Source of the DNA: an uncultured Gammaproteobacteria bacterium | GTDB taxonomy: Bacteria; Patescibacteriota; Microgenomatia; Levybacterales; GWA1-39-11 | NCBI GenBank assembly: GCA_964448725.1 | Contig: CAYVAJ010000001.1 | Span: 135,525 to 199,524 of the forward strand | DNA length: 64,000 bases | Direction of reading: 5' to 3' | In this document: positions 27,192-63,719 of the stretch, one piece after another | Layout: each line of letters begins with the position of its first letter | Position numbering within the stretch: position 1 is the stretch's first letter | Program-made: the position numbers and the translations under genes | The notes under the pieces: model-generated | Told to the model about the DNA's origin: nothing | Seen by the model: only the letters and a program-made list of their open reading frames with translations | Databases searched by the model: none

Positions 27192-27196
27192 GCATG

Positions 27197-38494: not shown

Positions 38495-40232
38495 CTTTGC
38501 AATTATCGCGCATGTTGATCATGGTAAGTCAACGCTTGCTGACCGTTTGCTTGAAATTACCGGTACAATTCCTGCTGAACAATTACAAGAACAGTTTCTT
38601 GACTCAAATCCAATATCTCGTGAACGTGGTATTACCATTAAATTGGCTCCTGTGAGGATGAGTTATACATCCAAAGGAACAGAGTATCAGCTTAATCTCA
38701 TTGATACTCCTGGACACGTAGATTTTTCCTATGAAGTAGTTCGTACTATGAATGCGTGTGAAGGGGCAATACTTCTTGTTGATGCCACCAAAGGTATTCA
38801 GGCTCAGACAATCGCAAATTATAACTTTGCAAAACGGCTCAATTTGACCATAATTCCAGTGGTTAACAAAATTGATCTCCCATCAGCAAATGTAGAAAAA
38901 GTAATGGCTGATATGGAAAGTCTTGGATTTGCAGAAAGAGATATTTTAAAAATATCGGCTAAAACAGGTCTTGGTGTTAAAGAGTTGCTTGACACTGTTG
39001 TGTCTCTTGTTCCACCTCCAGACGGAGATCGTGATGTTGATACACAGGCTCTTATTTTTGATTCTGTTTATGATGAACATAAAGGTATTGTAATTTATGT
39101 GAGACTTAAAAACGGAACAATAAAAAAAGGAGATGAGATAACATTTCTTTCAGATAACTCAACAGCTGTTGTTCTTGATGTAGGATATATGAAGCCAACA
39201 TATAGCTCAACTCAGTCACTTGATAATGGAGAAGTAGGGTATGTAATTACAAATATAAAAGACATTACTCAAGCGAAAGTTGGAGATACCATCACGTTAC
39301 GCGGACAACAGCCAGCTATGCTCCCAGGCTATAAGCCGTTAAAACCCTTTGTGTTTTTGAGTATTTATCCAGCAACAAATGCAGAGTTCCAAAATTTGCG
39401 TAAGGCACTTCATACGTTAAAACTGACTGATGCATCATTGGTATTTACTCCTGAGCAATCCTCGCTATTTGGACCAGGGTTTCGATGCGGATTTTTAGGA
39501 CTGCTCCATGCACAGATTATTATTGAACGGCTCGAACGTGAATATAACCTTGATGTATTTACCGCACCGCCGAGTATTGAATACAGTGTTGATGGAGAAA
39601 AAATATCAAATCCAAAAGACTTTGATATTTCGAAAAAAGATATACAGGAGCCATTTATGCTTGCTGAAATTTATACTCCTCAGGAATATCTTGGACAAAT
39701 ACTTGAGCTTATTTATGCTCGCCGTGGAGAACAGCAAGATATTGCTTACTACTCTTCTCAAGTTCGTGTCACTTTTGTAATGCCGCTTGCAAATGTTATT
39801 TATGATTTTTTTGATAAAGTTAAGTCAGTCTCATCTGGATTTGCTTCGTTTGATTACGAATTTTTAGAGTATCGTCCGTCTGATTTAGTGCGGGTTGATA
39901 TTTCGGTTAATGATCAGATTATTCCAGAGCTGTCGTTTATTGTGCATAGGTCAGAAAGTGATTATTTTGGCCGTAGAATTGTAGAGCTTTTATCAAAAGA
40001 AATTCCTAAACATCAATTTGTTATTGCTGTTCGGGCAAACATTGGTTCGCGAGTAATTGCCAGTGAAAAAATTGCAGCTTTATCGAAAAATGTTACCGCA
40101 AAACTGTATGGCGGCGATGTAACCCGCAAAAATAAACTACTAGACAAGCAAAAAGAAGGAAAAAAGAAAATGAAGACAATTGGACGAGTATCAGTCCCTA
40201 AAGAGGCGTTTTTATCTGTTCTGAAGGTTTAG
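38472..40232 (+). CDS. lepA: Elongation factor 4 (LepA)
   Basis: IRNFAIIAHVDHGKSTLADRLL G-domain, DTPGHVDF, NKID, and LepA-specific C-terminal domain. Confidence 0.95.
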   Translation: MDQKLIRNFAIIAHVDHGKSTLADRLLEITGTIPAEQLQEQFLDSNPISRERGITIKLAPVRMSYTSKGTEYQLNLIDTPGHVDFSYEVVRTMNACEGAILLVDATKGIQAQTIANYNFAKRLNLTIIPVVNKIDLPSANVEKVMADMESLGFAERDILKISAKTGLGVKELLDTVVSLVPPPDGDRDVDTQALIFDSVYDEHKGIVIYVRLKNGTIKKGDEITFLSDNSTAVVLDVGYMKPTYSSTQSLDNGEVGYVITNIKDITQAKVGDTITLRGQQPAMLPGYKPLKPFVFLSIYPATNAEFQNLRKALHTLKLTDASLVFTPEQSSLFGPGFRCGFLGLLHAQIIIERLEREYNLDVFTAPPSIEYSVDGEKISNPKDFDISKKDIQEPFMLAEIYTPQEYLGQILELIYARRGEQQDIAYYSSQVRVTFVMPLANVIYDFFDKVKSVSSGFASFDYEFLEYRPSDLVRVDISVNDQIIPELSFIVHRSESDYFGRRIVELLSKEIPKHQFVIAVRANIGSRVIASEKIAALSKNVTAKLYGGDVTRKNKLLDKQKEGKKKMKTIGRVSVPKEAFLSVLKV

Positions 40233-40788
40233 GCACAGTAAGACTTTTTTTCACTTCAAAATATTTAAATCTATCTATCTGATTCCAAAGATAGGCATAC
40301 ACAACAAAAGACGGAATCAGTGAACAAACAATAATCCAGCCGAGCCAGAAAAAATAATGAATTAAAATATCTGGATTAATGGTTATTTTATCTAACGAAT
40401 TTACAATATCATTAGTGGATAAAGAAAGAAGATAAATTCCAAATAAGAGTTCAGACCAGAAATTTATAAGCATAAAGGTAATAATGGGGAACACAGCGAA
40501 GAATGGCAGAAAAGCAAGTATTCGAAGCGCGTATAGACTCCATCTTGTGTATACATACAGGCAGGCAAAAACGAACAAGAACGAAAGGACAGAGAACCAA
40601 TCATACCACCATAATGGGAAAGTATAGCCCCAATAGGTTTTGATAAACACAAGTGGAATTAAGAGAAATATCCACTGAATCACCTTTACGCTTCGCGGTT
40701 TGGCGCTGTGAATTTGCAAAACAAAAAAGATGAGTTGAAGGATGTTTTTCTTTATGTCTGGTCGAGAAGCTTTACTTTCTGGTTGCAT
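40198..40788 (-). CDS. Polytopic membrane protein, hypothetical
   Basis: 196 aa, 5-6 hydrophobic helices. 3' end overlaps the lepA 3' end by 35 nt (convergent). Confidence 0.5.
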   Translation of the reverse strand: MQPESKASRPDIKKNILQLIFFVLQIHSAKPRSVKVIQWIFLLIPLVFIKTYWGYTFPLWWYDWFSVLSFLFVFACLYVYTRWSLYALRILAFLPFFAVFPIITFMLINFWSELLFGIYLLSLSTNDIVNSLDKITINPDILIHYFFWLGWIIVCSLIPSFVVYAYLWNQIDRFKYFEVKKSLTVPKPSEQIKTPL

Positions 40789-40793
40789 AAAAT

Positions 40794-41912
40794 TTAAAGT
40801 AAGAACAGCAGTACTCCCCCGATAATGGTAAGTATTACCGCCCCACCGATTCCTATAGCTGTTCCAATTGATCCAGGAGGTGCTAGAGTCGGCACAACTG
40901 TTGCTGGAATGTCAGTTGGTGAAACAGGCATTTGGGCACTTGGTGATCCTTCTTCAACAGTAACAGGCTGAGTACAGGATATACTAGTTCCTCCTCTATC
41001 GTCTGTAAAGATAACTGTTGCTGAATGTGAGCCAGTAATTGTATATGTGTGGCTCTGTTGTACCGATGCTGATGCGCTGCCAAGACCTGCGGTAACATCT
41101 ACTACTTGTCCATCTCCAAAGTTAAATGTAGCTTTTACAATCTGACCATCAGAATCATTACCAGTTGCAGTAAACTGGGATGTAAGCGGTGCTGAGCCAC
41201 TTGCAGGTATTACCGTAAGATTAGTACAGACTGGTACGATATTTGGAATAAGAGTAGGCGAAGGAGACGGTGTTCTTGAGGGAGTTGCCGATGGAGTTGC
41301 AGATGGGGTTGCAGTTGGTGATGGTGTGCCACCTCCTGTTCCATCAAGTATAGTGATGAGCGCAGGGGTTGTATTAACGAGGACATTTTCTCCTGGGTTA
41401 TCATCGGTTGCGATTGAGAGTACCTGTGTAGATCCTGGAAATTCAAAGGCTACTTGTGTTGGTGTCTCTGTCTTTTCTAAGGCTTCCAGCTCAATAGTCG
41501 CAACTTTAAATGGTTGATTGAAACTTTGAGTGGGATCGTATCCAGTTAGCGCTTTGTTAATTCCAAACTCTACACTTGCACTTCCACTTGTAATTGTTGG
41601 TCCGGAAAGTGTAGTAGAAATATTCTGTGAATCAGGAGTAATCTGAGAAATTGCCACTTTTTCTGCATCATAATTCAGTGAGAACTTGACGAATGAAGGA
41701 ATATTATTGCCTGGGTCTAACATAACATCAATGGTAAAAATTTCACCGACTGTAACAGTATTCTTTGAAGTTATAAGTGAAAGGTTACTTGATGGGGCAG
41801 CGCTACTTCTTAGATCTTGTTGTTGTTTTACAAAAAAGAGTGTGAGTGGAATTGTTATTAATAGTAGAACAAGAATCCCAATAAGAAAGAACTGTTTCCC
41901 GTTTAATTTCAT
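40794..41912 (-). CDS. Surface-anchored protein with N-terminal cohesin-like module, PT/PS-rich linker, a second beta domain and C-terminal TM anchor
   Basis: Signal peptide with extended c-region PLTLFFVKQQQDLRSSAA. Module TVTVGEIFTIDVML..FVKFSLNYDAEKVAISQI..FKVATIELEALEKT fits the cohesin beta-sandwich pattern. TPSPTATPSATPSATPSRTPSPSPT linker. C-terminal GGAVILTIIGGVLLFLL. Confidence 0.55.
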   Translation of the reverse strand: MKLNGKQFFLIGILVLLLITIPLTLFFVKQQQDLRSSAAPSSNLSLITSKNTVTVGEIFTIDVMLDPGNNIPSFVKFSLNYDAEKVAISQITPDSQNISTTLSGPTITSGSASVEFGINKALTGYDPTQSFNQPFKVATIELEALEKTETPTQVAFEFPGSTQVLSIATDDNPGENVLVNTTPALITILDGTGGGTPSPTATPSATPSATPSRTPSPSPTLIPNIVPVCTNLTVIPASGSAPLTSQFTATGNDSDGQIVKATFNFGDGQVVDVTAGLGSASASVQQSHTYTITGSHSATVIFTDDRGGTSISCTQPVTVEEGSPSAQMPVSPTDIPATVVPTLAPPGSIGTAIGIGGAVILTIIGGVLLFLL

Positions 41913-49395: not shown

Positions 49396-50336
49396 GACAC
49401 TCTCATATCTACTACCTCTTAAAATTGCTTCGTCCACGTCAGTGGATTAAAAACCTCGCTCTTTTTGCAGGAATTACCTTTAGCGGACAACTCTTTGAAG
49501 CAGATGCCCTTAGTCGTGTTGCAGTTGCCTTTCTCGCTTTCTGTTTTCTATCATCAGCCACCTATATTATTAATGATGTGCTGGATCTAAAAAAAGATCG
49601 ACTGCACCCATTTAAAAAAATGCGCCCACTTGCGAGCGGAAGAATTCAGATGTTTGAGGCTGCAATATTGTTTGCTGTGCTTCTTTCTTCTGCACTGATT
49701 TTAGCCAAGGGGTTAGGAGGATTATTTATCTTTATTGCCATTATCTATTTAACACTTCAGATTGCGTACTCATTGGTATTCAAAGGTGTGGTAATTTTTG
49801 ATATCTTTTTTATTGCTTCAGGGTATATTTTGCGCGTGTTGGCAGGAGGAGAGATTGTGAACTATCATATCTCTGTATGGCTACTTCTTACTACTGTTTC
49901 TCTCTCTCTCTTCCTCGCAGTTGGAAAGCGCAGGTCTGAGTTAACACTTTTGCGGAACATAAAAGGATCAAAAATTATGGAGATTCGTCAAAGTCTTTCC
50001 CATTATTCAGAAAATTTACTTGATGCATATACTGCTATTTTTGCAACTACTGCAATTATGTTTTATACCATGTTCACTTTTCTGGAGCATCCCCGTGGTA
50101 TACGTATAACACTTGAGTTATTATTGCCTGAATTTTTGCCTTACTACTTGCAAAGGAAATGGCTGATGATAACGATTCTTCCAGTAATTTATGGCATTAT
50201 GCGTTATATGCAGGATATTTATGAAAAAAGTGAGGGAGAAAGTCCTGACCGGGTATTACTCGCCGATAAAGCACTTCTTGCTTCAGTCATATCATGGGTG
50301 TTGATGGTCATTTTTATTATATACTTTATTGGGTAA
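49392..50336 (+). CDS. UbiA-family prenyltransferase resembling decaprenyl-phosphate 5-phosphoribosyltransferase (DPPR synthase)
   Basis: YIINDVLDLKKDRLHPFKKMRPLASG (NDxxDxxxD..K..RP.A.G) matches the DPPR-synthase subgroup of UbiA. 8-9 TMs. Confidence 0.7.
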   Translation: MRHSHIYYLLKLLRPRQWIKNLALFAGITFSGQLFEADALSRVAVAFLAFCFLSSATYIINDVLDLKKDRLHPFKKMRPLASGRIQMFEAAILFAVLLSSALILAKGLGGLFIFIAIIYLTLQIAYSLVFKGVVIFDIFFIASGYILRVLAGGEIVNYHISVWLLLTTVSLSLFLAVGKRRSELTLLRNIKGSKIMEIRQSLSHYSENLLDAYTAIFATTAIMFYTMFTFLEHPRGIRITLELLLPEFLPYYLQRKWLMITILPVIYGIMRYMQDIYEKSEGESPDRVLLADKALLASVISWVLMVIFIIYFIG

Positions 50337-51204
50337 TTTCAGTAACATAGTTCCCGCTTACCCAGCCTGATTCTCCATTATCTAAAGTGATTTTATACCA
50401 TCCATTCTGTGTATCGGTATAAGGAAATATTTCTCCAGGGTCAACTGTAGTAATCTGTCGACCAGCAGTTGATGGAGTAGATCGTACTCGTAAAAAACCT
50501 ACTGAATTCTCATCAATTTCAACTTTCTGTGCAATACTTTCTTCATCTTCTGATAGTTCATCATCTGTCTCAGTAGGTGTAGGAGTTGGGCTTACTTTTT
50601 CAAGGGTAGATTCATCTTCAGCTGATTCTGTGCCAAGATATGCTGAAACAACCAGCTTATATTCAGGAACGGTTCTAACTCTGATAGTTTTCTTAGCAAA
50701 TCCATCCTTTTGAATTTCTATTTCATGCTCTGAAGGTGAGATAGATTCCATAAAATAAGGACTAGTTCCACGTGGTGTACTGTCGACCGCAACCATGGCA
50801 GAGTTAGGAAGCGTACCAACAAAGAGCTGTGGTTCTTTTTCAGCTATTTTTTCAAGAGTTAATATATATGCACTTGCGAGAGATCCTGGTAAGAATGTTC
50901 GTTCAACAGCAGTCAGTACGCCTGGTGTTACGGTTACTTTGACGACAAAGGGTGTAAACTGTGTGTCTTCAGGAACAATCTTTACGGTATATTCTCCTTG
51001 TGTGATGGTATTGTTCTGTTCACACTTACATACTGGTGTCTGTCCGAGTAACTTGTCATCAAGATATACTGAGCTTTTTATATTTGCAGTTACTTGTAGT
51101 GCTCCTTGTCCTGATGGTCGTACATTCTGTATTACTTGGGTGAGAAGGAATAATCCGATAAGAATAAGAATAACAGCCAAGACCAGGAGGAAATTTCGTT
51201 TCAT
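50326..51204 (-). CDS. Secreted/anchored protein with PEGA-like repeats and C-terminal SH3b-like domain
   Basis: Signal/anchor MKRNFLLVLAVILILIGLFLL. PEGA-like YTVKIVPEDTQFTPFVV and EHEIEIQKDGFAKKTIRV. C-terminal GFLRVRS..GWYKITLDNGESGWVSGNYV (bacterial SH3). Confidence 0.55.
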   Translation of the reverse strand: MKRNFLLVLAVILILIGLFLLTQVIQNVRPSGQGALQVTANIKSSVYLDDKLLGQTPVCKCEQNNTITQGEYTVKIVPEDTQFTPFVVKVTVTPGVLTAVERTFLPGSLASAYILTLEKIAEKEPQLFVGTLPNSAMVAVDSTPRGTSPYFMESISPSEHEIEIQKDGFAKKTIRVRTVPEYKLVVSAYLGTESAEDESTLEKVSPTPTPTETDDELSEDEESIAQKVEIDENSVGFLRVRSTPSTAGRQITTVDPGEIFPYTDTQNGWYKITLDNGESGWVSGNYVTEITQ

Positions 51205-51298
51205 GCGTATTCACTATCATACCAAACTTATATATATATGCTCAAGAAAATGATTGATTATTTCGTGTAATAAACTGTTAAGAAAAGGCTCAAAGGTC

Positions 51299-51332
51299 TT
51301 GACAATTAGCAGTCTGATTGGTAGACTGATAA
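51299..51332 (+). promoter_or_regulatory. hsp20 promoter (TTGACA-17-TAGACT) overlapping a near-consensus CIRCE operator TTAGCAGTC-N9-GACTGATAA
   Basis: TTGACA 51299-51304. CIRCE 51306-51332 (consensus TTAGCACTC-N9-GAGTGCTAA; 2-3 mismatches, perfect internal IR CAGTCT..AGACTG). Confidence 0.55.
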
Positions 51333-51439
51333 TATTAAAGTTTAAGAGTGAAGGAGATTTGTCTTCCGTAGCCTGACACAATATTGTACTTAAAACTCCT
51401 TCACACGAGGCTCCGGAAGGCGAAGGGAGGTGAGTATCT

Positions 51440-51853
51440 ATGGCAGATGTAAGACTTCGACCATTTCGACCGTTTTTACTCCCATCTTTGTGGGATGAGG
51501 ACGAATGGCAGCCATTCACATCAGGATCACATGGTATGGATGTGTATGAAACTGATAGTGAAATAGTTGTCAAAGCACCTGTTCCTGGAATTCCTGTAGA
51601 AAATGTTGATGTGTCTTTTGAAGAAGGAGTACTGCGAATCAGAGGACGACATGAGGAAAAGGAAGAGGAAAAGAAGCGAAAGAAAGTTGTGCATCAATCA
51701 CAGCGTGTTACTACATTTGACTATGCAACTACTCTTCCACGCCCGATTGATGTAGAAAAAGTACAAGCAGAAGTAAGTAACGGAGTAGTAATCGTAACTG
51801 CTCCACTCGCATCAGAAGCAAAACCTCGAAAAATCTCTGTGAAAGCAGGGTAA
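51440..51853 (+). CDS. Small heat-shock protein, Hsp20/alpha-crystallin family
   Basis: Alpha-crystallin domain pattern DVYETDSEIVVKAPVPGI..VSFEEGVLRIRG..F.Y...LP..ID..KVQAEVSNGVV. Confidence 0.85.
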   Translation: MADVRLRPFRPFLLPSLWDEDEWQPFTSGSHGMDVYETDSEIVVKAPVPGIPVENVDVSFEEGVLRIRGRHEEKEEEKKRKKVVHQSQRVTTFDYATTLPRPIDVEKVQAEVSNGVVIVTAPLASEAKPRKISVKAG

Positions 51854-51874
51854 TTCTGAGTACAATATAAAAAA

Positions 51875-51902
51875 CCTCTCCAGCTTTGGGGAGGTTTTTT
51901 TA
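51875..51902. terminator. Bidirectional rho-independent terminator between convergent hsp20 and metG
   Basis: AAAAACCTCTCC-agcttt-GGGGAGGTTTTTTT: GC-rich stem (one mismatch) flanked by A-run and T-run. Confidence 0.6.
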
Positions 51903-53327
51903 TGGAAGTCGAGGAAAAAGAGGATTTGCTGATTGTACTTGTCCTGAAAATTGATTCATAACCTTTTGTGCTGTCTCTGGCATAAAAGGCTGAAGATCAA
52001 AGGCTGCCTGTTGAATGGCAGTAATGTAGCTCAGAAGTAATTCTTTTAATTCTTCTTGGTTATTAATTTTCCATGGTTCGTCTTGATTTATTTTTCTATC
52101 AATTTCACGAAGTTCTCTCCATATTGAACCTAATGCATCAGCGAACTGATATTTTATCAAGTGATCGTGGACAGTATTAGAAAAGGCCAAATTAAGAGAA
52201 GATGGAAGGGTTATTTCTGCATTTTCTGCAAGTTTTGCAACCCGCGCAACAAGATTGCCCAGTCCATTTGCAAGATCTGCACTGTAAACTTCTTTAAATC
52301 TGTCAACACTTGCCTCACCATCATCAGCAAGCGGAATTTGAGATAACAAGTAATATCGAAATGGCTCTAATCCGAATTTTTCTACCATCTCAAAAGGGTC
52401 AACTACATTCCCCAATGATTTACTCATCTTTTGTCCGCCAGGCGCAGTAATAAAGCTGTGAATAAGTATCTGCTTTGGGAGTGGAAGTTTTGCGGAGAGC
52501 AACATTGCAGGCCAGTAGACAGTATGAAATCGGTTAATATCTTTTCCTATAATATGAAGGTCAGCTGGCCACCATTTTTCCCACTTTTTTTCATCTGTCC
52601 CAAATCCTATGCCTGTCATATAAATTGATAAAGCATCAAACCATACATACATAACTTGATTGTCATCTCCAGGTACGGGAACGCCAACACCTCTTGCACG
52701 AGCTTTAGATCTTGATATGCTGAAATCCTCCAAACCTCGTTTGATAAATGAGAGTGCCTCGGCACGTTTGTTGCTTGGAATGATGTGTAATGTATCTGAT
52801 TCAATAAGTTGTTCTAACTGCTCTTGATAGCGGGATAATTTAAAAAAATAATTTTCTTCTTTTACAAGCTCTGGTTTTTTTAGATGATCTGGACACTCAC
52901 CTTGATCGTTCAGTTCTTCTGGAGTTTTGAAGCTTTCACAGCCAACACAGTATAGACCTTCATATGACTTTTTATAAATATCTTCGTTTGTCTCACATAA
53001 TTTCCAAAGTTTTTGTACTCCTGGCCAATGCAACTGTGTATCAGATCCTCTCTGAAAGACATCGAGATGTACGCCAAGTTGTGCAAATGCTTCTTTAAAA
53101 ACTTTTGAATTTTTGTCTAAAAAGGTTTGAGTATCTATTCCTTCTTTTTCTGCAGCTTGTACATTTTTGAGTGCATTTTCATCAGCACCAGACAGTAATA
53201 ATGTCTCTTCACCGAGAAGATCGTGGAAACGGCGTGTTGTGTCTGCTTGAAAGTATTCAAGTGCATGACCCAGGTGAGGTTTACCATTTACATATGGAAT
53301 AGCGGTTGTCAGATAAAACTTGCTCAT
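51900..53327 (-). CDS. metG: Methionyl-tRNA synthetase (short form)
   Basis: Class I HIGH motif PHLGHAL, KMSKS as KMSKSLGN, MetRS-type CxxC knuckle CVGCESF..ECPDH. Confidence 0.9.
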   Translation of the reverse strand: MSKFYLTTAIPYVNGKPHLGHALEYFQADTTRRFHDLLGEETLLLSGADENALKNVQAAEKEGIDTQTFLDKNSKVFKEAFAQLGVHLDVFQRGSDTQLHWPGVQKLWKLCETNEDIYKKSYEGLYCVGCESFKTPEELNDQGECPDHLKKPELVKEENYFFKLSRYQEQLEQLIESDTLHIIPSNKRAEALSFIKRGLEDFSISRSKARARGVGVPVPGDDNQVMYVWFDALSIYMTGIGFGTDEKKWEKWWPADLHIIGKDINRFHTVYWPAMLLSAKLPLPKQILIHSFITAPGGQKMSKSLGNVVDPFEMVEKFGLEPFRYYLLSQIPLADDGEASVDRFKEVYSADLANGLGNLVARVAKLAENAEITLPSSLNLAFSNTVHDHLIKYQFADALGSIWRELREIDRKINQDEPWKINNQEELKELLLSYITAIQQAAFDLQPFMPETAQKVMNQFSGQVQSANPLFPRLP

Positions 53328-53354
53328 ACAGATACAGTGTATTGTACCAAAAAT

Positions 53355-53726
53355 CTATGATTTGCGCTCTGGAGAAGGTTGTTTCAAACGCTTGGGAGGT
53401 CTACGAAAATAGACAGTACTGAGTAATACGATTAAAAGAAGAATAACCACATAAGAGCCTTCGGTATATCCAAGCATACGCAACAAAAGTGTTGCGACTA
53501 CAAAAAGAGCAAAAAATACTCCTTTAATACTGTTAATAAAGATGTATGTAAAGATGAGATAAGAAGCAAGGAATATTAAGATAAAAAAGAGAATAATCGG
53601 ATCGATCATAAAAGTATATATTTCAATTTTTTGCTTCGGATCTACAAAATAAATGAGCTCAAAGAGGGCAATTAAAAAGATTGTAAATGCCATAACAAAA
53701 TGAAGTAGTCGTTTTCTCATATGCAT
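53355..53726 (-). CDS. Small polytopic membrane protein, hypothetical
   Basis: 123-aa ORF, 3-4 hydrophobic helices, basic C-terminal tail. Confidence 0.4.
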   Translation of the reverse strand: MHMRKRLLHFVMAFTIFLIALFELIYFVDPKQKIEIYTFMIDPIILFFILIFLASYLIFTYIFINSIKGVFFALFVVATLLLRMLGYTEGSYVVILLLIVLLSTVYFRRPPKRLKQPSPERKS

Positions 53727-53832
53727 GTATTAAGTGTAAAGCGTAAATTACAAAGTGTAAAGATATATCAATCTCCTTGACTTTTAAAAATTGCTTCTGA
53801 TACTCTTAAACTAGCAAATAATATATCAAATT

Positions 53833-56169
53833 ATGATGGACGGATTTAATCATTTTGTGACCTCTCTTTTTTCCTCTTCTAAAAAAATGGCAGGCATGGT
53901 CATCATTCTTCTTATCGCAGTAGCCGTTCCAGTAACGCTTGGCCTTTTAAAGCAAAATCAGGATATCAGACAGGAAGCAGCGACAAACCTTACTTGTACG
54001 CTTCTTCCGCTTGAAAAATTATCTAACACTTCTTTTAAAGCAACTGTAGAGTTTAATGGAAGTGGTGCGCAAAACTACAGCACATTTGATTGGAAGCTCC
54101 ACTACTCAGATGGAACAGAAATTCCAAATAAACGTGTATGGACAGCAAAGCCTAACGATCCACCTGCCACTCATAATTTTCAAAATTTAGAATCAGGGAA
54201 ATCATATGCGTTGGTAGTACAGTTTACAAAAGCTAATGGAGGAGATCCATTTCCTTGTGGAACACAACATATCACTTTAAGTTCTAATAATGATCAGAAC
54301 CAAAATAATAACAATAATAGTGGAACAGTCCCCACCATTAACCCTTCAAATGCGCCATTTGTTCAAAACTTTGAAGTAAGACCTTCAGAGGTAAAGGAAA
54401 ATACAAAAACTGAAATTCTTATTCCATTGCCATCTGGACGTGCTGTGACAGAGTATGCTATTTATATTCACGGAACAAACCAACCTAAACCACTCCAAGC
54501 CTCTCAAAATAATTATAACCCTGATAATGTCGGTGCAGATACATTTTATAGGTTAAATACCCCTGGGTCATCAACTGCTAGATTTTCTGCTCCTGCAAAA
54601 GCTGGAACATATTATATTGCAGTCAATGCTGTAACAGGAGCATATATCTGTTCTTGGGATGGAAAAATCTATTATAGAAATCCGAATACTGGACAGGTAG
54701 AAGCTACAGGACAAACGTGCCAAAATAGTCTCAAGACCCTTAAAGTAACATCTTCAACTTCAGGAGGTGTTGGAGGACAAGCAAGCTGTACTCTTGATGT
54801 GTCAAGTGCCGTTCCAAATATAATTCGTGCCTCAGTTTCAGCGACAAATTTTTCATCTGAATATAATCGTATCCGTTGGAGGATATATAACTCTGGTGGC
54901 TCATTGGTAAAAGACGAACACACAACAGCAGATCCTAATTTTACTACTCCTATGTCTCAACAGTTCCCTAATATAGAAGCAGGAAGGTACGATGTTATTG
55001 CAGAGTATTATTCTACCCAATCACTTCCTGCTATTCTTTGCGGCAATAAGTCTGTTACTGTATCAGATCCAGTTGATCCTGGGACAAATAACCCAGGAAC
55101 AAATGATCCTGGGACAAGTAACCCAGGGACTAATAATCCTGGTGGATGGGATCCGGGTTCAGGCTTTCCTGGTGGCAATCCAGGAGGAATTGGCGGTGGT
55201 CCTATTAGTTCGCTTTTCTCTATTAAAGGTACTGTATTTGTAGATGCCAATAAAAACAAGAGGATGGATAGTGGGGAAAAAGGTTTTGAAGGTGCTACAG
55301 TTAAAGCATATGGCACCCAGGTTAATACCGATTCATCAGGTAAGTATAGTATTCCTGTAAGTGGTTTGACTATGAGTACATTAGAACTCACTGTCCCCCC
55401 TTGTTATACTGCCACGACTGATACGAGCATACGGGTAAGTCCACTTAGTTTTGGTGATATAAATTTTGGTATCATGCCATCTACTGGAGCAGGATGTGGT
55501 ACAACTCCTACTGTTACTCCTACGGTTACTACGACTCCTGTCCCTGCTTGTGGTGCAACGTGTGCAAGTAGTGCAGCATGTGCTGGTGCAGCAAACGGTT
55601 GTTCTACCTGCGTGACAGGAAGCAATGGTCAGAAGACTTGCCAGGCATCTACGAATACGAATCAAATTAACCTTGCAGTCTCTGTAGAGATGCCAGGTAT
55701 TGGTACGAGGACAGGAGATAATAGAAATCCAGCACGTACTACAAGAACCGGAAAAGTAGAGGTATACAATACTCAAAATGAGAAAGTAAAAGAAGGAGAT
55801 ATTAACTTTACCTTTACATTGGCAAGTCAATCAGCAGTGTATAACGGAACTGTTGAGATGACAAATATGGCAGAAGGGACATATTATGTAAAAGTTCGTT
55901 TTGACAATACAGTGTTTGAACAGCTTCCAGGGGTATATAATCTGAAAAAAGGCAATAATACACTTCCTACGATTGCGCTTGCACCTGGAGATCTAAACCA
56001 GGATAATAACCTGGACATGCAAGATTACTCAGTTTTTGTCAGCTGCTATGGAGATAAGAATTGTGGAGACAATACGAAAAAATTGGCTGACTTTAACGAT
56101 GATGGAAAAGTAGATGGAGTAGATTATAATATACTTATTCGGTCATTTGCGATTCGCTCAGGAGACTAA
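53833..56169 (+). CDS. Large secreted multidomain protein: two homologous Cys-pair beta modules, Pro/Gly/Asn-rich linker, CarboxypepD_reg/SdrD-B-like domain, Cys-rich segment, and C-terminal dockerin-like duplicated Ca-binding repeat
   Basis: Signal peptide with extended c-region VPVTLGLLKQNQDIRQEAA. Internal repeat (LTCTLLP..FDWKLHYSDG..FPCGTQHITL versus SCTLDVS..IRWRIYNSGG..LCGNKSVTV). GTNNPGTNDPGTSNPGTNNPGG linker. SIKGTVFVDANKNKRMDSGEKGFEGATVKAYG. C-terminal DLNQDNNLDMQD and DFNDDGKVDGVD loops. Confidence 0.7.
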   Translation: MMDGFNHFVTSLFSSSKKMAGMVIILLIAVAVPVTLGLLKQNQDIRQEAATNLTCTLLPLEKLSNTSFKATVEFNGSGAQNYSTFDWKLHYSDGTEIPNKRVWTAKPNDPPATHNFQNLESGKSYALVVQFTKANGGDPFPCGTQHITLSSNNDQNQNNNNNSGTVPTINPSNAPFVQNFEVRPSEVKENTKTEILIPLPSGRAVTEYAIYIHGTNQPKPLQASQNNYNPDNVGADTFYRLNTPGSSTARFSAPAKAGTYYIAVNAVTGAYICSWDGKIYYRNPNTGQVEATGQTCQNSLKTLKVTSSTSGGVGGQASCTLDVSSAVPNIIRASVSATNFSSEYNRIRWRIYNSGGSLVKDEHTTADPNFTTPMSQQFPNIEAGRYDVIAEYYSTQSLPAILCGNKSVTVSDPVDPGTNNPGTNDPGTSNPGTNNPGGWDPGSGFPGGNPGGIGGGPISSLFSIKGTVFVDANKNKRMDSGEKGFEGATVKAYGTQVNTDSSGKYSIPVSGLTMSTLELTVPPCYTATTDTSIRVSPLSFGDINFGIMPSTGAGCGTTPTVTPTVTTTPVPACGATCASSAACAGAANGCSTCVTGSNGQKTCQASTNTNQINLAVSVEMPGIGTRTGDNRNPARTTRTGKVEVYNTQNEKVKEGDINFTFTLASQSAVYNGTVEMTNMAEGTYYVKVRFDNTVFEQLPGVYNLKKGNNTLPTIALAPGDLNQDNNLDMQDYSVFVSCYGDKNCGDNTKKLADFNDDGKVDGVDYNILIRSFAIRSGD

Positions 56170-56173
56170 TATT

Positions 56174-56770
56174 ATGCCAAGAAGAACAGTTATACTTATC
56201 ATTATTCTTACAATACTCACTGGTGTGTTAGTCTTTCTTGCTGTGCAAAATGAACAGCGTAAAGTACAAGCGCCTGATATGACAGTGGGAACAGAATCTC
56301 CTACGCAGCAACCAGTATCCAAAACGGCTACTGTTTCATTTGATCCAATGAGTGTCCAGGCAGTTGCTTCGACACGATCAGCATCAACAGTTGATGTTAT
56401 TCTTGATAGTAAAGAACATACAATTGATAGTATTCAGTTAGAGTTTGTGTATGATCCGGCAATTCTTTCCAACGTAACAGTTGTTGCACCAGAATCGAAT
56501 TTTTTTGGAGATCAGGGAAGTTATACTGTTTTTCCTTTGTCAGATGATCCGCAAAGAGGCAGAGCCTCATATGCTGTTGGGATAAGTCCTGAGAGGGAAG
56601 CACGGCAAGGTATTGGAGTAGTTGCTCAGATATCATTCTCTGTAAATCCTCAATCTACTGCTTCTGCAACCGAAATCCAGGTATTAGATCGTTCTATGGC
56701 AAATGAACCAAATAGCCATCAAAGTGTGCTTGCACCGGTAGAACCTCTCACTATTACAATTGTGCGTTAA
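56174..56770 (+). CDS. Membrane-anchored cohesin-like domain protein
   Basis: N-terminal anchor IIILTILTGVLVFLAVQNEQRKVQAP. Ectodomain TATVSFDPMSVQAV..IDSIQLEFVYDPAILSNVTVV..GSYTVFPL..ASYAVGIS..GVVAQISFSVNP fits the type-I cohesin pattern. ATG 56174 chosen (GGAGA SD 9 nt upstream) over track start 56147. Confidence 0.55.
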   Translation: MPRRTVILIIILTILTGVLVFLAVQNEQRKVQAPDMTVGTESPTQQPVSKTATVSFDPMSVQAVASTRSASTVDVILDSKEHTIDSIQLEFVYDPAILSNVTVVAPESNFFGDQGSYTVFPLSDDPQRGRASYAVGISPEREARQGIGVVAQISFSVNPQSTASATEIQVLDRSMANEPNSHQSVLAPVEPLTITIVR

Positions 56771-56777
56771 GACTTGC

Positions 56778-57539
56778 ATGAAAAATATATTATCTCAACT
56801 TTCACAGATGCTTTCTGGACATACTCGAATAATTCCTATCTTAGGGGTGTTGGCCTTAGTGCTTGCTCTTCCGTTAACTCTGAGTCTTCTGGAACAAAAT
56901 CAAGATAATCGTCAGCAGGCTGCAGGCACAGAGGAGCAGTTATTCTCACAAGCAGACCCAAGTGCAAGTTCATCTGCTACAACTTGTGCTTCAGTAGGAG
57001 GAGAGTGTGTTGCTGATTCAGAATGGGTAAATTCACAAGCCCTTTTTGCCGCAGCATCTGTAGATGGAACGTATTCATGTCCTAGAACTGGTGATGTATG
57101 TGTCGTGCAGAAGCGGCCGACTGTTGAAAATCAAACATGCACGGGAAGCTGCGATATATCAAGTTCTATGTGTGAAGCAAATGGAGGTATTGTGACATCA
57201 GATACTTGTCATAATAAAAATCTGTGCTGTATGGTTCCATCTCAACCTGAACCTACTATAACATATCCTCCTCTAGGTAGTGCATGTTCTGATGGATCTG
57301 GAAATTTTTCATGCGGATTTGGTACTACTGACACAGAATGTCCTGTATGTAGCCCAGTTGCTGATTGTAGCACAGGAAATTATTCTATATTAAGTTGTTC
57401 AGGAACAGCAGTATGTACACAAGATTCAGATTGTGCTAACAATCCCCCAAGCTGTCCTGCTGGAAAAACAGGGACAGTTGTGTGTAATATTCCTTCTGGT
57501 CAAACACAAGGAAGCTGTCAGACGGTAAACTGCAAGTAG
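56778..57539 (+). CDS. Secreted cysteine-rich protein (about 30 Cys in about 200 mature residues)
   Basis: Signal peptide IIPILGVLALVLALPLTLSLLEQNQDNRQQAAG. Mature region dense in Cys-spaced motifs (CxxxxxECV, SCPRTGDVCVV, CTGSCD, LCCMVP, CPVCSPVADC, CSGTAVCTQDSDC). Confidence 0.6.
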   Translation: MKNILSQLSQMLSGHTRIIPILGVLALVLALPLTLSLLEQNQDNRQQAAGTEEQLFSQADPSASSSATTCASVGGECVADSEWVNSQALFAAASVDGTYSCPRTGDVCVVQKRPTVENQTCTGSCDISSSMCEANGGIVTSDTCHNKNLCCMVPSQPEPTITYPPLGSACSDGSGNFSCGFGTTDTECPVCSPVADCSTGNYSILSCSGTAVCTQDSDCANNPPSCPAGKTGTVVCNIPSGQTQGSCQTVNCK

Positions 57540-57554
57540 ACAGAGTATCTTGTC

Positions 57555-57591
57555 TTGACAAACATTAGCAGTCATGCTATCATTTTGCTAA
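57555..57591 (+). promoter_or_regulatory. hrcA-grpE-dnaK operon promoter (TTGACA-17-TATCAT) overlapping a CIRCE-like operator TTAGCAGTC-N9-TTTTGCTAA
   Basis: TTGACA 57555-57560, TATCAT 57578-57583. CIRCE-like IR 57565-57591 (TTAGCA..TGCTAA arms). Confidence 0.55.
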
Positions 57592-57633
57592 TATTAATTT
57601 TAAACTCTACATTTTAAGTTAGAGTTTTATATC

Positions 57634-58356
57634 ATGTACGATCTTACACCGCGCCAAATAGAAATACTTAAAAATATTGTCAGAGAATATATTGATTCAG
57701 CTGAACCAGTAGGAAGTGAAACGCTGGAGAAAAAATATGATCTAGGAGTGTCACCTGCAACCATCCGAAATGAAATGGCTGATATGGTAAAGCTTGGCTA
57801 TTTAGCAAAACCCCATTCTTCTTCAGGTCGTATTCCAACAAGCAAAGCAATAAAACTCTATGTAACAGAGCTTATGAAAGAACGTGTCCTCTCTGTTGCA
57901 GATGAGGTTGAGGCAAAAGAAAAAGTATGGGATCTGCGAGCTGTTGAGTCACAATTTTTTCGTCAATTGACCCGCAGTCTTTCACAAAAAACAGGAACGC
58001 TTGCTGTTGCGGCAACACAAGAAGGTGATTTGTATTTTGCTGGGTACTCAAATATTCTTGATATGCCTGAATTTTATGACATTGATATTACAAAAAATTT
58101 ACTTGCGATCTTGGATGATGTGTCATACTTTGATATGATACTAAAACGGATTGAAAATGATTATGCAGTGTTATTAGGCGAAGAGTTAGGGCTTGAACCA
58201 CTGCGTCCATATGGATTTGTATTCTCAAAATATGTTACACGGAATAATCGCCAAGGATCAATCGGTGTAATTGGACCAGCACGCCTTCATTATGAAGTAG
58301 TAGTTCCATGCGTGCGATATTATGGGCACTTAGTTGGGGAAGTTGCAAATTGGTAA
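57634..58356 (+). CDS. hrcA: Heat-inducible transcription repressor HrcA (short form)
   Basis: LTPRQIEILKNIVREYIDSAEPVGSETL winged-helix N-terminus and GYLAKPHSSSGRIPT motif typical of HrcA. Only 240 aa. Confidence 0.85.
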   Translation: MYDLTPRQIEILKNIVREYIDSAEPVGSETLEKKYDLGVSPATIRNEMADMVKLGYLAKPHSSSGRIPTSKAIKLYVTELMKERVLSVADEVEAKEKVWDLRAVESQFFRQLTRSLSQKTGTLAVAATQEGDLYFAGYSNILDMPEFYDIDITKNLLAILDDVSYFDMILKRIENDYAVLLGEELGLEPLRPYGFVFSKYVTRNNRQGSIGVIGPARLHYEVVVPCVRYYGHLVGEVANW

Positions 58357-58383
58357 ATAAAATTGAAAGTTGAGAATTGAAAG

Positions 58384-58893
58384 ATGAAAGATGACAAAAA
58401 GAAACAAGATAAAAACGGTGAAGAATTAAAAGAAGTTGTTGAAGAGAAAGATCTGGAAGGACAGTCTGAAACACAACAACTAGAACAAAGAATTGCAGAG
58501 CTTGAAGATCAGTATAAAAGGGCAGTAGCTGATTATCGAAATCTTGAAAAGAGAGTTGCAGAAGATCGACTAGAATTTATAAAATTTGCAAATAAAGAAT
58601 TGCTCGAACGGTTACTTCCAGCATTTGACACACTTTTCTTAGCTGAGAGATATGTGCAAGATGATGGACTTAAGTTAACCATAAAATCACTTGCCGATGC
58701 ATTAGAACAAGTAGGTGTTACACGAGTACAAACAGTTGGAAATGACTTTGATCCAGAGACAATGGAATGTGTTGAGACAGTAGATGGAGAAGAAGAGAAT
58801 AAAGTAGTAGAAGAAATCCGACCTGGATTTGTTCTTTCTGGTAGAACCTTGCGTGCAGCACTGGTAAAGGTAGGTTCTACAAAGCAGAATTAA
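58384..58893 (+). CDS. grpE: Nucleotide exchange factor GrpE
   Basis: Coiled-coil N-terminal (QLEQRIAELEDQYKRAVADYRNLEKR) and C-terminal beta domain (FDPETMECVE..GFVLSGRTLRAALVKV). Confidence 0.9.
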   Translation: MKDDKKKQDKNGEELKEVVEEKDLEGQSETQQLEQRIAELEDQYKRAVADYRNLEKRVAEDRLEFIKFANKELLERLLPAFDTLFLAERYVQDDGLKLTIKSLADALEQVGVTRVQTVGNDFDPETMECVETVDGEEENKVVEEIRPGFVLSGRTLRAALVKVGSTKQN

Positions 58894-59004
58894 TAAAAAA
58901 AAGCGTCTGGTAATTAGTGTATAGCGCGTAGTTTGAAAAATACAAGATATAGTATAGAATATACTGAGCGCTAAACACTAGCAACTAAACGCTAGAAAGA
59001 AACT

Positions 59005-60924
59005 ATGGCAAAAATTATTGGTATTGATTTAGGTACAACAAATTCAGCAGTAGCTGTTATGGAAGGTGGCAGCCCAAAAATAATATTCTCATCTGAAGGG
59101 CGAAATGTCACACCATCTGTTGTTGATCCTGTTGATAGGATTGTAGGCGATGTTGCAAAGCGTCAGATGGCATTGAAGCCAAAAAGAATTATCTATTCTA
59201 TCAAACGACTAATGGGGCATCGCTTTAAAGATGAGGCAGTTCAAGAAGAGCTGAAACGACTTCCTTACACAATCAAGGAAGGACGAGATGGTATGGCGGT
59301 AGTGGAAGTAGAAGGAAAAACATATACTCCGCAGGAAATTTCAGCACAGATTCTCCAAAAATTGAAAAAGGATGCAGAAAGTTATCTGGGTGAGACAGTA
59401 TCCCAGGCAGTTATTACGGTTCCTGCTTACTTTGATGATGCGCAGCGTCAAGCAACTAAGCAAGCTGGTGAAATTGCTGGTCTTGAAGTACTGCGGGTGG
59501 TTAACGAGCCAACTGCAGCAGCGCTTGCATATGGATTGGATAAAAAGCATGCACACACTATTGCGGTGTATGATCTTGGAGGTGGAACATTTGATATTTC
59601 TCTTCTCGAATTGGGAGAGGGTGTCTATGAAGTAAAGGCTACAAATGGTGATACGCATCTTGGTGGAGATGATTTTGATAAAGCAATAATTGATTGGCTC
59701 GCTGATGAATTTAAAAAAGAGAATGGAGTTGATCTCAGACAGGATCCTCAAGCACTACAACGACTAAAAGAATCTGCAGAAAAAGCAAAGATCGAGCTTT
59801 CCACATCAATGGAAACAGAGATTAATCAACCGTTTATTACCATGGGACAAAATGGTCCATTGCATTTGACTGTCAAATTATCACGAAGTAAGTTGGAACA
59901 GCTTATCGATGATCTTGTACAACGAACATTTAAGCCAGTTGAGGATGCATTAAAAGACGCAGGACTCTCTGCTAACCAAATCGATGAAGTAATTCTTGTC
60001 GGTGGTATGACTCGCATGCCAAAAATAGTTGAAGCAGTCACAAAATTCTTCGGCAAAGAACCAAACAAAAGCGTAAATCCTGATGAAGTAGTTGCAATCG
60101 GTGCTGCTGTTCAAGCGGGAGTACTTGGTGGAGATGTAAAAGACGTATTGTTATTGGATGTTACTCCATTAACTCTTGGCATTGAGACACTTGGTTCAGT
60201 TGCGACTCCACTTATTCCACGAAATACTACAATTCCAACAAAGAAGTCTCAGGTTTTCTCAACTGCAGCAGATAATCAAACACAAGTTGAGATTCATGTT
60301 GTACAAGGTGAGCGGCCTATGGCACCAGATAACAAATCACTTGGTAAATTCATCTTAGATGGTATTCCGCCAGCTCCTCGAGGTGTACCTCAGATTGAGG
60401 TATCATTTGATCTAGATGCATCAGGTATATTGTCAGTTACTGCAAAAGACAAAGCATCAGGTAAAGAACAGAGTATTAAAATTACTGGATCTACTGGTCT
60501 GACCGATGAAGAGATTCAGAAAATGACACAGGAAGCAGAGAAAAATGCAGAAGAAGACGCAAAGAAAAAAGAGTTAATCGAAGCAAAAAATCTCGCTGAG
60601 AATACAGCCTTTACTGCTGAGAAATCTCTCAAAGATGCAGGAGATAAAGTTGCAGAAGATCTCAAAAAAGAGATCACTGATAAGGTTGCAGCAGTTCGCG
60701 AAGCAGTTAAAGGAGATAATAAGGAAGAAATTACTGCAAAAACAAATGAACTCTCAGAGAGTATGCAAAAAATAGGTGAAGCAATGTATTCTGCAGAACA
60801 GAATGCTTCAGGACCGCAAGGAACTACTGATTCAACCACAGAGGAATCGTCTACTGATACTTCAGAAGGAGCAAAAAAAGACTCAGACGAGCCTGTTGAA
60901 GGTGAAGTAGTTGATGAGAAATAA
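59005..60924 (+). CDS. dnaK: Molecular chaperone DnaK (Hsp70)
   Basis: [32 protein letters not shown] Hsp70 signatures. Acidic C-terminal tail. Confidence 0.95.
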
Positions 60925-61349: not shown

Positions 61350-63719
61350 ATGAAAAAATTTCTGCCCAAAATTGTATTAGTTTTCTTCTTTTCTTTTGTT
61401 TTCCTTGTATTTGGAACAACTATTCATGCAAGTGGTCCTGCAACTCCTGCTCCTTCTGAGGTTTCTGTTGAGGACTGGGTAGAAGATCCAGAGGTTACAT
61501 TTGTGGGAAAAGCAGCAAATCGTGCCAATGATTTTTTGAACTGGACGCTGCAGAATTATGACTGGTTATGTGTACAAAAAGTAAATGATACTTGTGATAA
61601 TAGCGATAATCCACTTGTTGAATTTTGGGCACTTGTCCGCAATATCGTATACGCATTAATGCTCTTATTTGTACTCGGAACTGCGTTTGTAATCATTATC
61701 ACGCGTGGCCAAAATATTACCATAATGCGATTTGTTCCTCGATTTATCGCAATTATTGTGCTCGTAACCTTATCGTTTGCACTTGTACAGTTCTTATATG
61801 TTTTCATTGATATAATTCAAGGATTTTTCCTCAAGCCTGACGGGAAGATAATCTCATCAGCAGATCTTTTGTACATTGCTTTTCCATATGAATTTACTGG
61901 TTATCGTGCGGTAAGTGCTGCCAATGATGAGTCAGCTTTTATTTCCTTGTTGCTTATTAAGCTTACTGCAATCACCTATTATGTGATGACAGGAGTGCTG
62001 TTAGTACGAAAAATTATTTTATGGTTTTTCCTTATTGTCTCTCCTATTTTTCCATTACTTATTTTTTATAGTCCTATTCGTAACACTGCAAAAATCTGGG
62101 TTGGTGAATTTTTCCGATGGCTTCTGTATGCGCCGCTTTTTGCACTTTTCTTGCACGGATTAGTGGTAATGTGGAGAGATAAAATCCCATTAGCATTTGA
62201 TTTTACCACTCGTGTACCAGGAACAGATATACTCTATCCTACTTCAATAAATATTCTCCTTGGTGGTCCTGGTCAGGATATTGGATTCTATAATTCAGTA
62301 AACTTACCTGATACTTTTGCCCTGTATGTTGTAGCACTCATTATGCTTTGGGTAGTTATTTTACTACCATTTTTGCTACTTCGTATTTTTCTCGATTATT
62401 TGAATTCAGTTTCTATTGGCGGATTTATGTCAAAACAGGTTAATAAAAATTTCGCATTTTTGAATCCAAGAAGTCCATCAGGAGGACCTATGCCACCACC
62501 GCCGCCTGGAAAGGTGTTCCCTACTGGTATGGCTCGTCAATTGCCATTTTTGAATAAGCGTGGTGCGACAATTGAGGCAGGACGTCCTCTCGCTACAAAT
62601 ACGAATGTTCGATCAACAGTAAGTCAGCCAGCTGCAGTTCGTGAAGTAAATGATGTATTGAAGTCAATTAATATTAGTGTGCCAAAAATGCAGGATGTGG
62701 TGAAATATGAACGAGCACTCTTGAGCAATAATGTTACTGAAAGACAGCAAGCAACGCAGTTGAACGAGACATTAGCAAAGATTGCAAATCCAGCAAATGT
62801 TACATCTATTACTGAACGTCAACAATTCAGCCAAGTACATGAAAAATTAAAGAGTCAGCAAGATCGAGGTAATCCGCTTGCAACCTCTATTTTGACAGCT
62901 GCGGTGAAAACAACAGTAACACATAAAGTTGACGTTGACCAGCAACTGAGAACAATGCTGCAGCAGTTGTCCAATCCATCCATTTCCAATCCAAAACTGA
63001 GAACTAAGATGACAACACTTAAATCTCAGTTGTTAGGGGCACAGCAAGGAGGGAATAATCTTGCAACAACAGTGCTGTCTGTTTCTGAAAAAATACAGAA
63101 AAAAGAACTCTCTCCTGAACAAGAAAAAGTAGCAATTGAAGAAATTAAGAACAAAATTGAGGAACAAAAACAAGCAGAAGATCCAGTAGCACAATCAGTT
63201 GTCACAACGATGCAGGAAGCACAAGAAGTGACTGCAACACAATCACTGCCAGTTGTAAATCGAGTGCAACAAGTCAGCATTGAGGACTATGAAGAGGTAC
63301 GCAAGATGTGGGTAGAAAACTATGAAACCTTGGAACCTCCAACAACATTAGAAGGTAAACAGCTTGAGCGTGAGGAATGGGTTAACAGCGATATACAAAA
63401 AATTAATGAAGCGATCACATTACTTTCTTCTGTTGAACCTGAAAAAGTAACTGAAGGAATGGATATGGTAGGAAGCATTTTGCCATTCCTGCTTATGGGA
63501 GGATTCTCAAAATCAGAAGTTGTTGCCTATCTCAAGGCAAAACTTGCAGCAGCAAAATCAATTGTAGAGGCAAATCGTAAGAAACAAGAAGAAGAAGACA
63601 TGATGCTGGATCGCAAGGAAGCAACAACAGAGGCAAAACAAATGACTATGCAGAGAGAAGCAGAACTACCGCAGACACCAAAAGAACTTGGTCCAGACGA
63701 TGAATCTCAACAGTCATAG
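61350..63719 (+). CDS. Large polytopic membrane protein with long Gln/Glu-rich coiled-coil C-terminal domain, possibly VirB6/TrbL-like
   Basis: Signal-like N-terminus, 6-7 TMs in aa 90-350, PPPPPG segment, then about 400 aa low-complexity/coiled-coil with internal repeats (GNPLATSILTAAVKTTV / GNNLATTVLSVSEKIQ). Confidence 0.4.
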   Translation: MKKFLPKIVLVFFFSFVFLVFGTTIHASGPATPAPSEVSVEDWVEDPEVTFVGKAANRANDFLNWTLQNYDWLCVQKVNDTCDNSDNPLVEFWALVRNIVYALMLLFVLGTAFVIIITRGQNITIMRFVPRFIAIIVLVTLSFALVQFLYVFIDIIQGFFLKPDGKIISSADLLYIAFPYEFTGYRAVSAANDESAFISLLLIKLTAITYYVMTGVLLVRKIILWFFLIVSPIFPLLIFYSPIRNTAKIWVGEFFRWLLYAPLFALFLHGLVVMWRDKIPLAFDFTTRVPGTDILYPTSINILLGGPGQDIGFYNSVNLPDTFALYVVALIMLWVVILLPFLLLRIFLDYLNSVSIGGFMSKQVNKNFAFLNPRSPSGGPMPPPPPGKVFPTGMARQLPFLNKRGATIEAGRPLATNTNVRSTVSQPAAVREVNDVLKSINISVPKMQDVVKYERALLSNNVTERQQATQLNETLAKIANPANVTSITERQQFSQVHEKLKSQQDRGNPLATSILTAAVKTTVTHKVDVDQQLRTMLQQLSNPSISNPKLRTKMTTLKSQLLGAQQGGNNLATTVLSVSEKIQKKELSPEQEKVAIEEIKNKIEEQKQAEDPVAQSVVTTMQEAQEVTATQSLPVVNRVQQVSIEDYEEVRKMWVENYETLEPPTTLEGKQLEREEWVNSDIQKINEAITLLSSVEPEKVTEGMDMVGSILPFLLMGGFSKSEVVAYLKAKLAAAKSIVEANRKKQEEEDMMLDRKEATTEAKQMTMQREAELPQTPKELGPDDESQQS

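Follow-up and report, generated by a model that had tools for sequence, protein, structure and literature searches.

The 64-kb stretch of contig CAYVAJ010000001.1 analysed here (the window; 36.8% G+C) carries a cluster of three genes at 53833..57539, which we call A, B, and C, and a separate minus-strand gene, D, at 40794..41912. Gene A encodes a large protein ending in a dockerin domain, and gene B, immediately downstream, encodes a predicted membrane-anchored protein with a single cohesin. A, B, and D were found where an earlier note on this DNA had placed them; gene C falls within the range that it described but was left without description there. The ATG of B at 56174 lies 4 nt past the TAA of A and has an AGGAG motif on its 5' side; a mechanical list of open reading frames (ORFs) stretches B to an upstream TTG at 56147. 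Gene C begins 7 nt past B and is followed on its 3' side by the hrcA-grpE-dnaK operon. The spacing suggests an operon-like arrangement of A, B, and C, and hrcA onward appears to form its own transcription unit because the strongest promoter-like site of the region (57555-57583, 11 of 12 matches) sits upstream of hrcA.

The C-terminus of A carries the only dockerin of the window. The Pfam model Dockerin_1 (PF00404) matched residues 718-771 at 29.1 bits, above its gathering score of 22.9 (E 1.2e-6), over profile positions 1-55 of 57. The region consists of two tandem segments of ~22 residues, in both of which a helix follows the calcium loop; the loops, DLNQDNNLDMQD at 55990 and DFNDDGKVDGVD at 56089, lie 33 residues apart. 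The dockerin and the two canonical calcium loops that the earlier note had read at this end of the protein are thus present, and the Asp and Asn positions of the loops proved to be conserved in orthologues. Both loops are kept in 10-11 related lineages, with a degenerate loop 1 in two of the related loci (L014 and L019), while C, C, D, G, D, Y, and N are invariant in the dockerin alignment and a C-terminal tail ending in IRSGD is also conserved among 10 lineages. PF00404 was matched by eight of the 10 related cargo ends (best E 1.3e-9). A dockerin profile made from related loci matched A alone, and no second dockerin was found in the window. A six-frame regular-expression search of the whole 64 kb found no loop of the DxNxDxxxDxxD type outside A, and one extra match, DANKNKRMDSGE, within the SdrD_B-like domain of A itself. 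The linker between the two dockerin helices contains a Cys pair (SCYGDKNCG, 56020-56085) that is invariant in all 10 aligned lineages, which suggests a disulfide; such a pair is not known from classical cellulosomal dockerins.

The protein encoded by gene B belongs to a large family with matches to known cohesins. An exhaustive profile search recovered 979 cluster representatives (50% identity) at E ≤ 1e-3, including 526 at E ≤ 1e-10, and nearly all members are 190-250 residues long and are matched end to end. The Pfam cohesin model PF00963 was matched by 105 of 137 aligned family members (best E 4.3e-13) and by four of the six close B orthologues (best 1.2e-5). When the sequences of B and D were searched directly against solved structures, nothing significant came up, but profile searches did match; the B-family profile retrieved 3l8q at 2.1e-6 and then 10 more structures below 2e-3, SdbA and OlpB included. 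An AlphaFold2 (AF2) model of B built with the family alignment (predicted local distance difference test score, pLDDT, 94.5) consists of a helix at residues 3-27, a linker, and a cohesin-type beta-sandwich at residues 52-197, and the top 50 structures retrieved by Foldseek with this model are all cohesins (best 8.1e-10). Because the hidden Markov model (HMM) matches of the family, the profile comparison with solved structures, and the predicted fold agree, we call B a cohesin by family homology and modelled fold. Within the N-terminal helix, T5 and L12 are conserved in at least 90% of the family, and the helix has no evident cleavage motif. Q88 and E90 of B are nearly invariant and may be the counterparts of the Asn37/Asp39 contact pair in C. 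thermocellum cohesin 2. Pfam and NCBIfam showed no other domain in B, no NCBIfam model matches the family, and its named members are deposited as 'hypothetical protein'. Exactly two ORFs of the window matched the B-family profile, namely B itself (2.6e-68) and D (9.7e-8).

The gene order that the earlier note had pointed out is kept in relatives. Of 15 informative lineages, 12 (the window, L003, L006/L012, L008, L010/L011, L014, L015, L016, L017, L018, L019, and L020) have a dockerin-ended gene directly upstream of a B-type gene, as cohesin identity to B falls from 61% to 28%. A genome scan with a 6-sequence B alignment yielded nine loci and sampled taxonomic breadth thinly. Several cargoes may precede one socket, with two tandem dockerin genes before a single cohesin gene in L008 and three in L017; in L018 a single dockerin gene precedes two cohesin genes.

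We compared the pair with solved cohesins and dockerins. With a profile covering the dockerin of A and the module preceding it, the best solved relative was the CipA X-dockerin (2b59_B, 1.8e-7), and 3kcp_A, 5g5d_B, 4wi0_B, and 4u3s_B were also matched; the alignments with these X-dockerin dyads extend into the X-module. The profile of the pre-dockerin module alone matched only A. cellulolyticus X-modules, marginally and over ~35 residues (4wi0_B 0.0028, 4u3s_B 0.0073). On this evidence the dockerin of A and its preceding module appear closest to type II X-module-dockerin dyads, which serve in anchoring at the cell surface. Type II cohesins are marked by an extra helix and beta-flaps in a module of ~170 residues. 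The sequence profile of the B family is nearest type II cohesins, the compact fold of B ranks type I first, and type III scores lower. The label 'type I' that the dockerin had first been given is therefore not established, as the sequence of A is nearest type II dyads and only the fold of B ranks type I first.

Table 1. Genes of the dockerin-cohesin cluster, gene D, and the features of their products (window positions)
Feature	Position	Strand	Evidence or remark
Gene A, dockerin-bearing cargo protein	53833..56169	+	778 aa, 16 Cys, stop TAA
Leader of A (aa 1-50)	53833..53982	+	hydrophobic helix then PVTLGLLKQNQDIRQEAA; hydropathy; sequence pattern shared with C and D
Cys-bracketed beta-domain of A, copy 1 (aa 55-149)	53995..54279	+	BLASTP against copy 2 E 3e-8; weak fn3/Ig-like Pfam match at aa 70-137
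Cys-bracketed beta-domain of A, copy 2 (aa 319-410)	54787..55062	+	aligns with L006/L012 cargo, 31% identity
Pro/Gly/Thr/Asn-rich linker of A	55075..55203	+	15-nt tandem repeat (55074-55133, direct repeat family D1)
SdrD B-like / CarboxypepD_reg-like Ig-fold domain of A (aa 466-529)	55228..55419	+	holds loop DANKNKRMDSGE; SdrD_B below threshold
Putative beta-sandwich before dockerin of A, X-module-like (aa 608-717)	55654..55983	+	conserved with dockerin, 25-36% identity in distant loci
Dockerin of A (aa 718-771)	55984..56145	+	Pfam PF00404; two F-hand calcium loops, Cys pair in linker, C-terminal tail ending IRSGD
Gene B, predicted membrane-anchored single-cohesin protein	56174..56770	+	198 aa, no Cys, ATG start
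N-terminal transmembrane helix of B, predicted (aa 3-27)	56180..56254	+	AF2 helix, hydropathy, family conservation
Cohesin beta-sandwich of B, predicted (aa 52-197)	56327..56764	+	AF2 model, family profile, Foldseek
Gene C	56778..57539	+	253 aa from ATG, 22 Cys, leader as in A
Leader of C	56778-56920	+	shared sequence pattern
Gene D, candidate second cohesin-type anchor	40794..41912	-	372 aa
Leader of D	41799-41912	-	shared sequence pattern
Cohesin-like module of D (aa 42-189)	41346..41789	-	hhalign, hmmsearch, AF2/Foldseek
PKD domain of D (aa 237-319)	40956..41204	-	PKD_4 7.4e-9, PKD 3.9e-8, both above threshold
C-terminal hydrophobic tail of D, PPGSIGTAIGIGGAVILTIIGGVLLFLL	40797..40877	-	conserved in homologues, no basic end

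The remainder of A is made up of beta-domains and linkers behind a single hydrophobic segment, which hydropathy places at the N-terminus. The start codon is supported by the first 55 residues, which are ~80% identical to those of orthologues. The two Cys-bracketed domains are ~95 residues each, and a Cys-rich stretch separates the SdrD-B-like domain from the pre-dockerin beta-sandwich. A CarboxypepD_reg domain had been reported in this cargo by the earlier note and is weakly borne out: Pfam gave SdrD_B at E 4.8e-4 and CarboxypepD_reg at E 0.19 on the Ig-fold domain, both sub-threshold in A, and one A orthologue has a precomputed SdrD_B match.

Comparison of A with its homologues, of which a full-length search gave at least three, revealed a cassette-like pattern of constant ends and a swapped middle. 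The last 170 residues of A are 68-73% identical in orthologues whose cohesin is 55-61% identical, and the alignment with distant loci is confined to the last 110-180 residues (25-36% identity). The middle (54280-55650) is mostly unalignable with the cargoes of L003, L006, L008, and L012, and cargo length varies from 541 to 778 residues. This pattern suggests recombination or diversifying selection. A diversity-generating retroelement was considered as the source of the variation and rejected, as a search of the 10 kb at 50000-60000 showed no template/variable repeat pair. In a Pfam search at E ≤ 1, A showed no enzyme, catalytic, or carbohydrate-binding domain. Since no enzyme domain was found and the middle is swapped while the leader and the X-dockerin end stay constant, A is most likely an exchangeable adhesin or surface-recognition protein and not a polysaccharide-degrading enzyme, and a role for it in host attachment is plausible.

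The leader of A is shared with C and D and with no other protein of the window. It consists of a hydrophobic helix followed by P[LV]TL, two or three further residues, and [KE]Q[NQ]QD-x-R-[QS]-x-AA. In distant Levybacteria loci (L015, L016, L017, and L020) the dockerin cargo genes start with similar leaders, and no Pfam or NCBIfam model matched the shared segment, which is possibly a signal for export or sorting peculiar to the lineage. In A it is probably a signal peptide that would be cleaved after the Ala-Ala. Protein C likewise has a single hydrophobic segment, at its N-terminus; neither a Pfam match nor a dockerin was found in it. Gene C occupies the third place in the cluster only among close relatives, being present in L001, L003, L006, L008, and L010-L012 and absent after the cohesin gene in L014-L020.

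Protein D was evaluated as a second cohesin-like anchor. It has hydrophobic segments at both termini and is ordered as leader, cohesin-like module, Pro/Thr linker, PKD domain, and C-terminal transmembrane tail; the PKD domain is missing in two of the three D homologues found. An hhalign comparison of its first 195 residues with the B family gave 94.8% probability (E 5.1e-8), and the hmmsearch match of the B-family profile to its module (9.7e-8) extends over the whole profile. PF00963 was matched by two of four D-family members at 7.3e-4 and not by D itself. The AF2 model of the module (pLDDT 86.9), for which the modelling alignment consisted mostly of B-family sequences, again retrieved only cohesins among the top 50 Foldseek matches (best 1.2e-9). 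The proposal of the earlier note that D is a second cohesin-like anchor is thus supported by profile comparison and predicted fold, with weaker evidence than for B. Gene D sits between lepA and the divergent groES-groEL; relatives retain it next to groES and lepA, and no dockerin gene adjoins it in the window or in relatives. The D tail has the consensus PPGSxGxxIGIGGxxxLTIIGGxLLFxL with no basic residues after it, and it resembles a sorting signal more than a plain anchor. A 196-residue polytopic membrane protein without a family match is encoded 5 nt from D (40198-40788, minus strand); a sorting-enzyme role for this neighbour was considered and rejected, as it matches no family and is absent at that position in L021 and L022.

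The host is probably a Levybacteria-type Microgenomate, a Candidate Phyla Radiation (CPR) member with a small genome. The window has no rRNA, and the placement follows from the names on homologues and relatives' loci, which are Candidatus Levybacteria, Levyibacteriota, or 'Patescibacteria group'. The relatives' assemblies that carry the locus in L012, L014, and L015 (CAZIAP010000002.1, CAZRWL010000018.1, and CAZYIC010000014.1) are titled 'uncultured Gammaproteobacteria bacterium', which looks like a deposit mislabel and not real taxonomy. The order dockerin-cohesin-C-hrcA-grpE-dnaK is kept in L012.

We infer that the locus is probably a non-cellulosomal cohesin-dockerin module for surface tethering in a CPR bacterium, with the binding of A to B, its calcium dependence, and the role of the pair all predicted from sequence. 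Protein A would be exported by means of its N-terminal leader, which would then be removed. Its calcium-binding dockerin, stiffened by the preceding beta-sandwich, would plug into the single cohesin of B, itself fixed to the cytoplasmic membrane through an N-terminal helix that stays uncleaved and a linker of ~25 residues. In this way A would be retained non-covalently at the cell surface, and variable surface proteins could be presented in a plug-and-socket display. Protein D could serve as a second socket, anchored at its C-terminus, that takes the dockerin of A or that of another protein encoded elsewhere in the genome. The tethering role fits because the nearest solved relatives belong to the anchoring class of interaction.

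Several observations weigh against this proposal. The reading of B as a cohesin, already made in the earlier note, is carried by its relatives and by the AF2/Foldseek fold, while the sequence of B itself gave no match to PF00963 at E ≤ 1. The window contains two cohesins and one dockerin, which makes the assignment of partners ambiguous, and three more distant loci (L013, L024, and L025) carry a stand-alone cohesin gene with no dockerin neighbour. The result that A lacks an enzyme comes from Pfam alone, and ~300 residues of A have no assigned domain. Finally, if the leader of A were not cleaved, it would itself anchor A and make tethering by B redundant.

This last point leads to a different arrangement, in which A is anchored in the membrane by its uncleaved helix and its dockerin binds B or D, either on that cell or on a neighbour, producing a looped lattice or cell-cell links. 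The leader sequence is unusually conserved, and ~11 residues (KQNQDIRQEAA) run from its hydrophobic core to the Ala-Ala, which is long for a signal-peptidase substrate; D, however, has the same leader plus a C-terminal membrane tail, a combination that is easier to explain if the leader is removed, and we judge this arrangement very unlikely. It is also unlikely, if somewhat less remote, that the dockerin binds another target such as host glycans or the cell wall in a calcium-dependent way, with B an independent small membrane protein that has a cohesin-like beta-sandwich and with the adjacency of the genes regulatory or unrelated. Such a target would be in line with the essential dockerin-domain protein described in a Saccharibacterium by Wang et al. 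2023, who speculated on host-glycan targeting (PMC10633639), and would accommodate the stand-alone B-family genes; the binding of A to B is itself a prediction. Against it, the gene order is tightly kept in lineages whose cohesins are 28-36% identical, with the middle of the cargo replaced, the X-like module plus dockerin is the conserved part of otherwise variable cargoes, as expected with a constant partner, and B has no other domain that hints at a different role.

A miniature cellulosome, in which the pair would assemble polysaccharide-degrading enzymes on the cell surface, is highly improbable. The idea has a precedent, as Kantor et al. 2013 found dockerin-like and cellulosome-anchoring proteins in SR1 and, in OD1, a 'cellulosome-related gene cluster', and read them as complex-carbon degradation (PMC3812714), and the nearest solved relatives of the present modules are all cellulosomal. 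A cellulosome, however, is defined by a scaffoldin with at least two cohesins and one or more dockerins fused to a glycoside hydrolase (PMC13487519). In the window B and D have one cohesin each, with no scaffoldin carrying two or more, and in the protein that has the only dockerin of the 64 kb, Pfam at E ≤ 1 found no carbohydrate-binding domain and none of a glycoside hydrolase, carbohydrate esterase, or lyase. The survey of Peer et al. 2009, in the form in which PMC13487519 summarises it, describes non-cellulosomal proteins with cohesins and dockerins as mainly non-catalytic. Returning to surface tethering, a wider version of that proposal would make the pair a general modular host-attachment platform of Microgenomates/Levybacteria, with B (perhaps also D) as the constant socket and interchangeable X-dockerin adhesins whose central parts are exchanged between strains to track host surfaces. 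We regard this extension as tentative and, on balance, doubtful; if true, the platform would be a determinant of the episymbiotic lifestyle, of an importance comparable to that of the essential dockerin protein in a cultivated Saccharibacterium.

The arrangement predicted here can be set beside several known systems. In Clostridium thermocellum, the single-cohesin anchors OlpA and OlpC, and the type II anchors SdbA and OlpB with the X-dockerin of CipA, likewise provide a surface-held cohesin that takes a dockerin protein. The OlpA and OlpC cohesins (3ul4_A, 4dh2) are among the top fold matches of B, and those of SdbA and OlpB (2bm3, 2b59_A, 5g5d_A) among the top profile matches of the B family. 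The C. thermocellum anchors are attached by S-layer-homology repeats, whereas here an N-terminal (B) or C-terminal (D) transmembrane helix would do so; the present system further differs in that the cargo A is no scaffoldin and has no enzyme domain recognised by Pfam, in the invariant Cys pair of its dockerin linker, and in its CPR host. The single type III cohesin of Ruminococcus flavefaciens ScaE also has X-dockerin partners but is attached to the cell wall through an LPXTG signal and sortase, and B has no such signal. Similar to the present locus, the minimal system of Cellulosilyticum lentocellum (PMC13487519) has one cohesin and one dockerin and stays below the cellulosome definition. In that system a working GH5 cellulase has the dockerin fused to it and the cohesin protein includes a carbohydrate-binding module, neither of which was found here by Pfam. 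Compared with the non-cellulosomal modules of the Peer et al. 2009 survey, of Archaeoglobus fulgidus (2xdh), and of the Clostridium perfringens toxin complex (2jh2, 2vo8, 2w1n, 2o4e), the locus has a conserved adjacent gene pair of cargo and socket, and the socket is a dedicated protein of ~200 residues, membrane helix plus cohesin, in a family of 979 clusters.

A full-text literature search found no paper on a cohesin-dockerin gene pair or on a membrane-anchored cohesin family in the CPR. The earlier note knew of no such system in this type of organism; for the gene pair the search agrees, but passing mentions of related proteins exist (PMC3812714, PMC10633639). What is new is the placement of known modules in a conserved two-gene arrangement with a new anchoring mode and wide occurrence in the group. 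The surface organisation and host attachment of ultrasmall CPR bacteria are largely unknown, and outside Saccharibacteria there is almost nothing testable. The locus offers a concrete two-protein interaction to test, between an X-dockerin of ~170 residues and a cohesin ectodomain of ~150 residues, that recurs in many lineages. It would also put right the customary reading of such CPR genes as signs of cellulose degradation, and if the pattern of conserved ends and variable middle reflects host tracking, the cargo genes could serve as host-range markers.

Other parts of the window encode further large proteins. A run of large membrane proteins at 23456-32110 on the minus strand includes two PMT-type (protein O-mannosyltransferase-like) glycosyltransferases (27197-28744 and 28741-30456) and a DUF2298 protein (23456-25594); these are candidates for adding glycans to the Pro/Thr-rich linkers of surface proteins, D among them. 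Three large ORFs, at 1-1836 (minus, 611 aa), 30446-32110 (minus, 554 aa), and 61350-63719 (plus, 789 aa), have no Pfam match at E ≤ 1e-5. An 800-residue protein at 6622-9024 on the minus strand matches TrwB_AAD_bind and T4SS-DNA_transf, domains of type IV secretion coupling proteins, and adjoins a tRNA-Ile(TAT) at 6480-6556.

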